A stretch of 64,000 nucleotides of DNA, taken from Octopus vulgaris (Eukaryota). The stretch lies in NCBI GenBank assembly GCA_951406725.2, contig OX597834.1, forward strand, positions 25,854,001 to 25,918,000, in the 5' to 3' direction. The notes beneath the pieces are model-generated. The model was not told the DNA's origin. It did no database searches and was given only the letters and a program-made list of their open reading frames with translations. This document shows, piece after piece, positions 11,935 through 62,396 of the stretch. A program made the translations under genes and the position numbers. The first letter of the stretch is position 1; every line of letters begins with the position of its first letter.

Positions 11935-12410
<476 letters not shown>

Positions 12411-13166
12411 TTTGTATGTATCTGCTACCAATTTCCTCTTCCTCCTTATGATTGGATAATAAATATCTCCTCTCCAATATTATCCATCTTTCTTTCTTTC
12501 TTTCTTCTACTTTCCTCCTCTGTCTTCTTTCGTCTTCCTTCTCTCTCCTTTTATCTTGAAACTTCCTCCAGTTACTCAAACTCCAGCCAATACACATGCC
12601 CACCACCACCACCACCACTGCTGCCGCCACCACCTCTTTAAATCTCTCGTCATTACACTTTTTCCTCGTTTAATTCTTCTTTATTTCTTACTTTCAAACT
12701 TCACTTATCTGCTTTCTTAATAGTCTTAAATTTCCTTTTTTTATTATTTTTCTTTATCTGAGAGGAATGTGTGTGTAGGGGAGTTGCTTTTTTTTTTTTT
12801 TATAATATTTAATATAATTTTATTTTTTTTTTTTTTTTTGTCTTTCACAAATAAACTGACTTTCAGAAATACATTGAGATTTGAATATTTTACCATTCTT
12901 GCCAAAATAATTTTAAATACTTCAAATGTTGTATTTTTAATTAGAAAAAGGAAAGAAAAGGTTAAGACATGCTTTATTAGTTTTGGAATTATGTAGAGTA
13001 ATATAAACAATAATGAGTGTAGATATGGATACAGAAGAGTTTTTCTGAAGATACAATACATGATCAACAATCTTCAGGACACTTATGTGTATCCTTGGAT
13101 TTTTAAATTGAGAAACTGATTCTTCATGGTTTTGTCAGTGAGATATGTTTGTCCAATAACAAGGAA

Positions 13167-32223: not shown

Positions 32224-32880
32224 TATGTCACGCTGGTGAGACCCATATTGGAGTACGGGATTCAAGCCTCTTCTCCTTATCTCCTCAAAGACATACAGCA
32301 TCTCGAAAGAATTCAGAAGCTGGCTACCCGCATAGTTCTTGGTCTCAAGCATTTGTCTTACGAAGAAAGGCTGAAGATGCTCGACCTTTATTCTCTAGAA
32401 AAACGACGACGCCGTGGTGATCTCATTCTTGCTCACAACATCATAAGCGGAAAGTGTAACCTCTCGAAAGAGCTGTTCTTCACACCTGCTCCAGAGCATT
32501 GGCTGCAGGGTCACTCCGAAAAGCTCTATCTGTGACGGTCTTCAGAGATGAACTTGGTGCCACCAAAGCCTGAAAAAAGACAAAAAGAAAAAGCTTATTA
32601 AAAATAATGTTATTGTTATGAAGTCAGAGTTCTTGACTAAGCTCTACCTACGACGATTTCATCTCAATCGAAGGAGAGGGGCTTTCTCTGTCCGGGTTGC
32701 AGATCCGTGGAATAAGCTGCCGGACGAGATAGTGAAGATGCCGACGACCGCTCAGTTCAAAGTCTCCCTTGACCACAAATGGCCTGAACTCTTTGCATGA
32801 ACACCACCCTGTACATAACTCCATGTCCCCCTACATGGCCTTGCTTTTTGCTTTTTGAGCCAAAAAATTAACTTAACTTA
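32224..32880 (+). mobile_element. CR1-clade LINE, 5'-truncated 3' end (RT C-terminal region + 3'UTR), interrupted at 32538-32638
   Basis: YVTLVRPILEYGIQASSPYLLKDIQHLERIQKLATR...LSYEERLKMLDLYSLEKRRRRGDLI...GHSEKL and FSVRVADPWNKLP are typical CR1 motifs. It ends in a short TTAAC-type repeat tail. Confidence 0.9.
32532..32638 (-). pseudogene. Inverted fragment of a Limpet/FHL final intron-exon boundary (polypyrimidine tract + AG + (G)FGGTKFISEDRH) inserted into a CR1 element
   Basis: Reverse complement reads ...gctttttctttttgtcttttttcAG|gc ttt ggt ggc acc aag ttc atc tct gaa gac cgt cac. The phase-1 start fits the exon D donor (ATG G|). Compare Limpet GIGGTRFISFEDRH and FHL2 GLGGTKYISFEERQ. 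Confidence 0.8.
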
Positions 32881-33343: not shown

Positions 33344-33544
33344 CTAATATTTTCTTCTGAATACACAAAAGCTATGGAACAGAATTTCCACAAAGATCAC
33401 TTGGCCTGCAAACACTGCGACAAAAAACTGATAGCTTGTAGATATATCTTAAAAGATGAGAATCCCTACTGTATACCTTGTTATCAAGAATTGTTTGCCC
33501 ACAACTGTTATGTTTGTAGAAAACCAGTAGGACCTGACTATAAG
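33344..33544 (+). CDS. FHL2: Limpet/FHL2-like LIM-domain gene, coding exon A (201 nt, phase 0-0): LIFSSEYTKAMEQNFHKDHLACKHCDKKLIACRYILKDENPYCIPCYQELFAHNCYVCRKPVGPDYK
   Basis: Pyrimidine-rich tract + CAG at 33341-33343; donor GTAAGG at 33545. LIM zinc ligands Hx2Hx2Cx2C...Cx2C are present. The sequence closely parallels Drosophila Limpet LIFSGEYTKAM...HPYCIKCYE..FAN.C and FHL2 as I recall them. Confidence 0.93.
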
Positions 33545-33675
33545 GTAAGGGGAAAATTTAACGCAAAGTTTAAGCTTTTGATAAACAAAAATGAATTCTG
33601 TTGTAGTGTTTGCGTGTGGTGGGGGGCATATGTGGAAGTACCTGTGTGCAGGCAAGGTAGAATGCTTGTGTTTGT

Positions 33676-50527: not shown

Positions 50528-51018
50528 GGCGAGCTGGCAGAAACGTTAGCACGCCGGGCGAAATTCGTAGCCGTATTTCGTCTGTCGTTGCGTTCGGAGT
50601 TCAAATTCCGCCGAGGTCGACTTTGCCTTTCATCCTTTCGGGGTCGATAAATTAAGTACCAGTTACGCACTGGGGTCGATATAATCGACTTAATCCCTTT
50701 GTCTGTCCTTGTTTGTCCCCTCTGTGTTTAGCTCCTTGTGGGTAGTAAAAAAAATAAAAAAGCTTATTCCTTCATCATTTTTGTCTTATATATGAGCTGG
50801 CAGAAACGTTAGCACGCCGGGCGAAATTCGTAGCCGTATTTCGTCTGTCGTTGCGTTCCGAGTTCAAATTCCGCCGAGGTCGACTTTGCCTTTCATCCTT
50901 TCGGGGTCGATAAATTAAGTACCAGTTACGCACTGGGGTCGATATAATCGACTTAATCCCTTTGTCTGTCCTTGTTTGTCCCCTCTGTGTTTAGCCCCTT
51001 GTGGGTAGTAAAGAAATA
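50528..51018 (+). mobile_element. Two near-identical tandem SINE family A copies (50528-50760; 50794-51018)
   Basis: The first copy is flanked by TSD AGCTTATTCC (50518-50527 / 50761-50770). Confidence 0.85.
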
Positions 51019-52280: not shown

Positions 52281-52683
52281 TAGTTAGTTAGTTAGTTAAT
52301 TTGGCTCAAAAGCAAATAGCAAGGCCATGTAGGGGGACATGGAGTTATGTACAGGGTGGTGTTCATGTAAAGAGTTCAGGCCACTTGAGGTCAAGGGAGG
52401 CTTTGAACAAAGCGGTCGTCGGCATCTTCACCATCTCGTCTGGCAGCTTGTTCCACGGATCCGCAACCCGGACGGAGAAAGCTCCTCTCCTTCGATTGAG
52501 ATGAAATCATCGCAGGTAGAGCTTTTCGGAATGACCCCGCAACCGACGCTCTGGAGCAGGAGTGAAGAACAGCTCTTTCAAGAGGTTACACTTTCCGCTT
52601 ATGATGCTGTGGGCGAGAATGAGATCACCACGGCGGCGGCGTTTTTCTAGAGAATAAAGGTCGAGCGTCTTCAGCCTTTCTTC
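52281..52683 (-). mobile_element. CR1-clade LINE 3' end, same family as 32224-32880, opposite orientation, inserted in an old TTAA-type MITE
   Basis: Minus strand encodes EERLKTLDLYSLEKRRRRGDLILAHSIISGKCNL...GHSEKLYLR, with the same 3'UTR and a (TAAC)n tail. Confidence 0.9.
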
Positions 52684-57019: not shown

Positions 57020-57194
57020 GATTTATCATACAAAGATAAGCATTGGCATGAATTCTGCTTCAAATGCGGTGAATGTCAAAAGAGCCTTGTCAACCAGCCT
57101 TTTGCTTACAAGGATGATGCAATTTTCTGTTCAGATTGCCATGATGAACTGTTTGCAGCTAGATGTGATGGATGTAAAAAACCTTTTAAAGGAG
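57020..57194 (+). CDS. FHL2: Limpet/FHL2-like gene, coding exon B (175 nt, phase 0-1): DLSYKDKHWHEFCFKCGECQKSLVNQPFAYKDDAIFCSDCHDELFAARCDGCKKPFKG(G)
   Basis: Not in the ORF track; translated by hand. Acceptor ttctttctttgtAG ends at 57019; donor GTAGGG at 57195. DLSYKD.HWH is the FHL/Limpet signature and is in frame with exon A. Confidence 0.95.
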
Positions 57195-57743
57195 GTAGGG
57201 CAGTGAAGTTTTATCTTTTTTTGTCTTTTTTTTTTATGCATATTTTGTTTTGATTGCTTTTATACTAGGTCCAGTTACTGAACTGTGGCCATGCTGGAAC
57301 ATTGCCTTTGTTGGATTAGGCAAATAAATCGACCCCAGTACTTATCTTAAATTTAGTGTTTAGGAAGGGCATCCAGCTGTAGAAACACTGCCAGATCAGA
57401 CTGGAGCCTGATGCAGAAACACTGCCAGATCAGACTGGAGCCTGGTGCAGCCTTCTGGCTTCCCAGATCCCCGGTCGAACCATCCAACCCATGCTAGCAT
57501 GGAGAACGGACGTTAAACGATGATGATGATGATTCCATTAGTCACTTTGGCCAAATATATGTGTGTGTGTGTGTGTGTTCGTCCCCCACTACTGCTTGAG
57601 AACTGGTTTTGGTGTGTTTACATCCCCATAACTTAGCAGGGTCAATAGAACAAGTATTAGGTTTAAGAAAAAAATCAGTACTGAGGTCAATTCATTTGAC
57701 TAAAAATTCTTCAAGGTGGTGCTGCATCCTGGCCACAGTTTAA

Positions 57744-58521: not shown

Positions 58522-58691
58522 GAATGAAGAAATTTGAATACAAAAATACTCAATGGCATGAAGAATGTTTCTTGTGCAATGTCTGCAAAGAGGCCATTAA
58601 AAACAAGAGCTTCATTCCTCGTGGTGATGAAGTTGTCTGTATCCCCTGTTTCGAAAATAAGTATGCTCAGAAATGTGCTAAATGCAATGGT
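58522..58691 (+). CDS. FHL2: Limpet/FHL2-like gene, coding exon C (170 nt, phase 1-0): (G)MKKFEYKNTQWHEECFLCNVCKEAIKNKSFIPRGDEVVCIPCFENKYAQKCAKCNG
   Basis: Acceptor tttgtAG ends at 58521; G|GA completes a Gly across the junction; donor GTAAGT at 58692. LIM ligands and the KSFIP motif are present. Confidence 0.95.
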
Positions 58692-62209: not shown

Positions 62210-62396
62210 GTGCTAACCAAAGGTGGTGTTGCATACAAGGACATCCCATGGCATCGCGAATGCTTCACTTGCTCGAAATGCAACAAAAATCTAGCCGGAG
62301 AGAAATTCACATCACGTGAGGAAAAGCCGTATTGTGCTGATTGCTATGGTGACTTGTTTGCTAAGAAGTGCTGCATTTGCTCAAAGGCTATTATGG
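62210..62396 (+). CDS. FHL2: Limpet/FHL2-like gene, coding exon D (187 nt, phase 0-1): VLTKGGVAYKDIPWHRECFTCSKCNKNLAGEKFTSREEKPYCADCYGDLFAKKCCICSKAIM(G); the final exon presumably lies beyond the window
   Basis: Acceptor CAG at 62207-62209; donor GTGAGT at 62397. GGV.Y...PWH.ECF.C and FTSR...PYC..C.G.LFAK match FHL2/Limpet. Confidence 0.95.

Follow-up and report, generated by a model that had tools for sequence, protein, structure and literature searches.

A 77-kb intron of an Octopus vulgaris gene encoding a PET- and LIM-domain protein contains a LINE fragment, termed here W, into which 107 nt copied from the boundary between the gene's own last intron and last exon have been inserted in inverted orientation. 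The copy probably arose in one DNA-repair event, primed by homology and ended by microhomology, between W and a second, inverted LINE, termed D, that lies beside the donor site. On this reading the locus would preserve, in unusually legible form, a natural case of repair between retrotransposon copies that was primed by homology and ended by microhomology, in which the donor, the truncation point, the subfamily switch and the junction can all be read from the sequence. It would also mean that pairs of dead LINEs can spread splice sites and pieces of exon around a gene without retrotransposition. Throughout, the window is the whole 64,000-nt stretch of DNA that was analysed, and positions above 64000 are window-equivalent coordinates, to which 25854000 is added to obtain positions on G000:C21.

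Structure of the interrupted LINE

W is a 5'-truncated, CR1-like LINE fragment on the plus strand at 32224-32880. Its 5' arm (32224..32537, plus strand), at whose first base the matches to the family begin, encodes a C-terminal piece of ORF2, and the last 6 nt of the arm are common to the insert. The ORF2 frame breaks after ...HSEKLYL at 32537 and restarts as KLYLRRFHLN... at 32639; the insert itself occupies 32532-32638, in agreement with the first-pass annotation of this DNA, which had described a LINE ORF interrupted by some 100 nt. When read on the minus strand the insert runs from intron through a pyrimidine tract and CAG into FGGTKFIS-EDRH, as had also been reported, and this reading was reproduced from the sequence. 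The exon part (32532..32569, minus strand) comes from the start of the last coding exon, whose first 41 nt (donor at 66043-66083; G000:C21:25920043-25920083) are reduced to 38 nt in the insert by a 3-nt deletion that removes one Phe codon. The intron part (32570..32638, minus strand) represents the end of the last intron, with its pyrimidine tract and acceptor CAG (donor at 65974-66042), and differs from the donor at a single position, 32585; its intronic origin had been recognized correctly, and its length, put earlier at about 68 nt, is 69 nt by alignment to the donor.

The 17-mers on the two sides of the insert (32521-32537 and 32639-32655) had been described as a 17-nt duplication. Both are present, but they are alike at 14 of 17 positions and the right one starts at the 5' end of D, for which reason a target-site duplication was rejected. 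The insert has neither poly(A) nor a true target-site duplication, which separates it from class 1 TSIPs (LINE ORF2-mediated). It was found in none of 101 other copies of the family, and the two arms are contiguous in 91 of these (8/101 lack a usable arm match and 2/101 have other internal rearrangements), so that a family-wide composite element can be discarded. Simple donor and acceptor patterns revealed no new plus-strand splice sites in the insert. A role as an intronic poly(A) signal was likewise rejected, as the one ATTAAA in the insert compares with 31 ATTAAA and 51 AATAAA motifs in the 43 kb of intron examined.

The LINE family

The family to which W and D belong has the features of non-LTR retrotransposons, namely an RT-bearing ORF2, 5' truncation, a short tandem-repeat tail and dispersed copies, of which about 2400 candidates were counted at first look. 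The family is provisionally labelled CR1. Whilst Pfam gave no match for the two ORF pieces of W, a longer copy (L056) carries an RVT_1 domain (E 1.4e-32), and the piece in W is 94% identical to it over 97 aa. Within this longer copy, L056:184-1956 forms an open ORF2 piece of 591 residues. Its best named homologs are RT proteins of birds and turtles, none of them labelled CR1, and such homologs would fit the CR1 label; many of the RT homologs carry the further Pfam domains PF14529 and PF03372, both presumably endonuclease domains. The family looks young, its best copies being 96-98% alike. Two copies, L031 (G000:C24:31267183-31267711) and L070, contain an internal tandem duplication or rearrangement, with arm offsets of -287 and -537.

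The host gene and the position of the insert

Pfam recognized a PET domain and six LIM matches in the product of the host gene, and the exon adjoining W gave a 100% match to a protein named Octopus vulgaris planar-cell-polarity-3-like. The intron that holds W belongs to the same transcription unit as the last exon, and the PET exons of that unit lie at window -44 kb and further upstream; the earlier supposition that the insert region is part of the primary transcript is therefore upheld, since both copies fall within one transcription unit. Four host exons lie in the window. The first follows W by 465 nt (33345..33545, plus strand; LIM-coding, placed by tblastn with P0001 residues 266-333), and the other three, also LIM-coding, are at 57020-57195, 58522-58691 and 62210-62396 (plus strand; tblastn and exon boundaries). 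The last coding exon had been called missing; it is present 2 kb beyond the end of the window, at 66043-66191 on the plus strand. The last exon but one ends at 62396; its phase, 1, fits the copied acceptor as had been stated, and the donor lies 33 kb downstream of the insert, consistent with the claim that the copy sits more than 30 kb upstream of the true exon position. A paralogous PET/LIM-type gene, 34-46% identical to P0001, is found on another contig (G000:C1:105895967-105910167).

The donor site and its own LINE

A search of the genome with 32500-32680 returned, besides the window itself, one unique match, at G000:C21:25919932-25920083 (minus strand, 96%, E 4.5e-63). This corresponds to 65932-66083 and runs across the real acceptor of the last exon, whose AG is at 66041-66042, exactly where a single high-identity match past 64000 had been predicted. 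A distant paralog was rejected as the donor, given that the only unique match is at the host gene's own last exon.

D is a 5'-truncated LINE of 242 nt at 65732-65973 (G000:C21:25919732-25919973, minus strand), situated 69 nt upstream of the last exon. It is inverted relative to W, 33 kb away and 96% identical to it. The match to the donor extends past the insert and through the 242-nt 3' arm of W because the donor site has a LINE copy of its own: 32532-32880 aligns with 66083-65732 as one inverted block of 353 nt at 95.2%, composed of 110 nt of unique donor DNA and the whole of D. Moreover, the 5' truncation point of D is the exact family base at which the right 17-mer (32639) begins, so that the right junction is one of long homology and not of microhomology. 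Seven of the 101 family copies (L012, L039, L043, L088, L090, L097 and L113) are 5'-truncated within about 10 nt of the position at which D is truncated, which may reflect a mild truncation preference or an effect of where the query starts.

Subfamily markers and the origin of the 3' arm

Copies of the family were projected on both arms of W, 74 at first and then 101, leaving out W, D, the four stretches of flank, four loci that had been retrieved in duplicate and L110, which was mistaken for a repeat; the copies had been fetched as best matches to W or D, which biases the frequencies given here. Six distal markers (32767-32845) were picked where W and D differ, and the D-type base is found at 6/6 of them in D and at 0/6 in the distal arm of W, a score for W that is partly built in by this choice. 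Across the 101 copies the D-type scores are bimodal, with 52 copies at 0-1, 12 at 2-3 and 37 at 4-6, a split that is partly circular in that D served as the query for retrieving the D-type copies; the choice of markers nevertheless does not build in the bimodality seen among independent copies. The tail units also differ, being TTAAC in W and TTAAA in D, and the 3' arm of W has 5-8 differences in 229 nt from several unlinked copies as against 10 from D. The distal 3' arm with its TTAAC-type tail (32767..32880, plus strand) is thus of W's own subfamily. Since it lacks all the D markers and resembles other copies more than D, neither a retrocopy nor a transduction of D accounts for the structure. 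A retrocopy of D was rejected on the markers and the tail unit, and the LINE-mediated capture that had been offered as one origin of the insert is contradicted by the same two features.

The proximal 3' arm (32639..32766, plus strand) appears to differ in history, and may well hold a conversion tract copied from D. One family position is doubled in W: its left copy has G, as do 25/25 informative copies fetched with W's 5' arm, and its right copy has A (A32650), which is found in D and in 0/25 of that set. A second base, A32701, is common to W and D and occurs in 2/25 of the same set. These two shared minority alleles suggest that a short tract near the junction was copied from D; it would likely reach at least 32650, perhaps 32701, and end before 32767. 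The evidence for the tract consists of two sites, one of which (32701) is a mutable CpG, and at 32646-32647 W has AC where D has TT, which the tract model has to explain by two later point changes, one in each copy. D bears no reciprocal change and keeps its own markers throughout, and W has private variants, for example A32484 and T32313.

The junctions and a model of repair

At the left junction (32532..32537, plus strand) the antisense of the exon reads GTGACG and most family copies read GCGACG; the base at 32533 is C in 65 of 69 family copies, T in two and G in two. The G(T/C)GACG microhomology that had been proposed for the boundary between CR1 and exon is accordingly borne out at this junction, where 4 nt are certain and 6 nt apply if the CpG of W had already decayed. 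Among 380 possible run-off lengths, 16 give 4 nt or more of identity with the 17-nt overlap, and just one, the length observed, gives 6 nt, although the 6-nt figure is taken from the present sequence of W and is partly circular.

These features are best accommodated by repair of a break from genomic DNA, one of the origins suggested at first reading and the class of explanation to which the donor match, the homology to D and the microhomology all point. In the model that is probably correct, W would already have been in place when a broken or stalled end within its 3' arm paired with D. The paired end would then have been extended beyond the truncated 5' end of D, copying 69 nt of the intron and next 41 nt of the exon, before it rejoined the 5' arm of W via the microhomology of 4-6 nt. 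The short overlap between the arms would follow from the tail leaving homology at the 5' end of D and finding local microhomology 12-17 nt inside. Since the strand extended from the homologous end has the sense of the pre-mRNA, its template would be DNA. An earlier proposal of a templated insertion from the same locus, copied from genomic DNA or from unspliced pre-mRNA, therefore stands as regards the donor, which is the last intron/exon boundary of the same gene, and falls as regards a pre-mRNA template if the homologous end did the priming. The structure has three properties of one-sided invasion: one junction lies within extended homology, the 242 nt of LINE being contiguous with the insert; copying went beyond that homology and took in 110 nt of unique sequence, intronic and exonic; and the second junction has microhomology. 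The product is probably a neutral intronic scar.

Alternative explanations

Of the rival accounts, the one that survives best couples the switch to the integration of W itself: the cDNA of W would have paired with nearby D, copied the 5' end of D and its flank, switched back at the microhomology to the RNA of the LINE, and continued for about 310 nt. The same mosaic and polarity would be expected, W and D are each a few per cent from their subfamily majority and hence of similar age, and no insert-free W was identified among contigs that leave the interior of W without resolution. Such a course would, however, require that D was in place before W and that the template was switched twice in a single reaction, and single-copy captures in DNA transposons are reported to be mostly post-insertion (PMC8277862). 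It is regarded as unlikely.

A microhomology-primed templated insertion, of the MMBIR or polymerase-theta type, would reverse the order of events, with the left end of W priming on the exon, copying exon, intron and D from DNA or pre-mRNA, and closing on the right arm of W. It would account for the microhomology at the left junction and for the retained intron, and the polarity from the left end would permit a pre-mRNA template; insertions from nearby templates have been described (PMC8421209; PMC5110952). Yet a primer of 4-6 nt would have had to anneal at a site 33 kb distant that happened to lie 110 nt from a homologous LINE truncated at the very position of the break, a coincidence that the homology-first order does not need. 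The end product alone cannot separate the two orders, and it is this coincidence that makes a microhomology-first course improbable.

The structure might also be an assembly chimera of two inverted LINE copies. The W-specific left junction is spanned by contigs in 0/4 runs (X2, X6, X8 and X10, from organisms A, B, C and D respectively), all four of which show the donor form; contigs drop variants and leave the interior of W unresolved, and an uncovered junction is hence no proof of absence. In raw-read run X22, 16 reads were placed from about 3% of the run, none of them on the insert, and are uninformative. Against a chimera, four differences separate the first 120 nt of the insert region from the donor in this assembly (the 3-nt deletion, 32585, 32646 and 32647), and the insert is joined to an arm of a different subfamily. 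At 32585 the insert has A, and so do the contigs that carry the donor in organisms B, C and D, whilst this assembly's donor and X2 have C, an allele pattern that would be hard to obtain from a read chimera. The donor contig of X2 ends at 32645, immediately ahead of the point at which W and D begin to differ, whereas that of X8 reaches 32676; this is an indirect hint of two continuations in X2, which a heterozygous donor or a break in coverage could also produce. The allele, the differences from the donor and the end of the X2 contig favour a real event, and an artefact is considered very improbable. An X10 contig joins the tail of W to unique flank, and the host element W is therefore common to organism D. 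W and D differ from each other about as much as the window differs from organisms B-D across unique flanks (about 2-4%), from which it follows that the event is not very recent.

LINE-mediated 5' transduction would involve retrotransposition of an antisense transcript that crossed the last exon and entered D, together with its fusion to the RNA of another LINE. It would explain why the insert is exactly the 5' flank of D in D's orientation, but it is largely refuted and scarcely credible, since the 3' arm and tail should then be those of D (the markers and the TTAAC unit say otherwise) and a fusion point 17 nt from the truncation of D would be due to chance.

Comparison with known systems

Among the closest known systems is non-canonically terminated homologous recombination, or one-sided invasion, for which a title by Belmaaza and Chartrand (1994) is cited in PMC4888836. 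In a 2016 study of non-canonical recombination termination, synthesis runs out of the homologous region and its end is joined through microhomology (PMC5104497). The octopus insert is like that class in starting in homology, running beyond it and closing its second end by microhomology. That system, as described there, concerns an induced break in a sister-chromatid reporter in mammalian cells, with kilobase tracts (PMC5104497); the insert, in contrast, is inherited, involves inverted intronic LINEs 33 kb apart and a 110-nt run-off, and its steps are reconstructed from the end product.

Similarities to three further groups are partial. Single-copy Pack-TIRs, attributed to transposition-independent gap filling (Tan et al. 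2021, PMC8277862), also hold same-chromosome host DNA captured singly in a transposon remnant, with microhomology at breakpoints and little element sequence lost; unlike them, the octopus host is a LINE and not a TIR element, and one of its junctions shows, in place of microhomology, long homology with a second LINE copy located at the donor. Rearrangements mediated by transposable elements share two same-family elements at the junction, a drive by homology and, here, opposite orientation, but the published cases are deletions, duplications or inversions in which each of the two breakpoints falls within an element (PMC9675761), whereas in octopus nothing between the copies is inverted or lost and one junction only is homologous. 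MMB-TI (PMC8421209) and class 2 TSIPs (PMC5110952) are, like the insert, short templated patches without poly(A) or a true target-site duplication; they are defined by microhomology priming or by distant patches, in contrast to the roughly 240 nt of repeat homology at one end of the insert. Literature searches directed at this locus, or at one-sided invasion arising naturally between copies of retrotransposons, found nothing specific, most subscription papers being outside their scope.

Potential for an antisense duplex

Octopus is an animal noted for extensive RNA recoding. The insert and the 3' arm of W together form an antisense arm of about 350 nt that could pair with the acceptor region over 33 kb and drive A-to-I editing of the acceptor or of codons, or delay splicing of the last exon, much as the first-pass annotation had envisaged for the insert; it would then be a cis element born in one step. 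Were this true, comparing species or alleles that have the insert with others that lack it would offer a direct test of how an editing-complementary sequence originates. Such a role is judged improbable. As W and the last exon are in the same transcription unit, a stable duplex in one transcript can be computed, with 334 pairs and -621 kcal/mol for the arms of W and D, and 106 pairs and -177 for the insert alone. Of 27 inverted pairs (at least 200 nt and at least 85% identity, in 77 kb examined), W/D is the only one that touches an exon. The spacer between W and D is 32.9 kb and contains four exons, and a third LINE copy of an older subfamily (52290..52683, minus strand), also inverted to W, is a nearer, competing partner, for which the computed pairing with W is more extensive (378 pairs, -689). 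None of the differences between W and D are compensatory. In addition, W is so placed, 465 nt from the acceptor of its own intron, that it may be spliced out before its partner is made. Given the 33-kb spacing and the nearer partner, a function of the W/D duplex in splicing or editing is predicted to be unlikely.

Inverted Alu pairs edited by ADAR resemble this arrangement in having two near-complementary arms per pre-mRNA, and in human their editing is reported to peak at a spacing of 300-400 nt and to fall with distance to a plateau of about 1% (PMC526178). The octopus pair differs from these in its 33-kb spacer with four exons.

W and the copy at 52290-52683 bracket the exon at 33345, and W and D bracket four exons; bracketing by inverted LINEs could favour back-splicing, independently of the insert.

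Other repeats around the gene

Several further repeats were observed in and around the gene. In L022, a tandem array of about 2.7 kb with a unit of about 93 nt lies at 78262-80969, 12 kb past the last coding exon, and 3-4 tandem copies of a unit of about 220 nt, about 97% identical, lie at 74374-75275. Two-copy units resembling the latter occur at 50531-51016 in the window and at window-equivalent -5745 to -5307 (L024). Palindromic, MITE-like self-complementary elements of 490-620 nt are present at 11935-12421 in the window and at window-equivalent 85598-86216 (L023).
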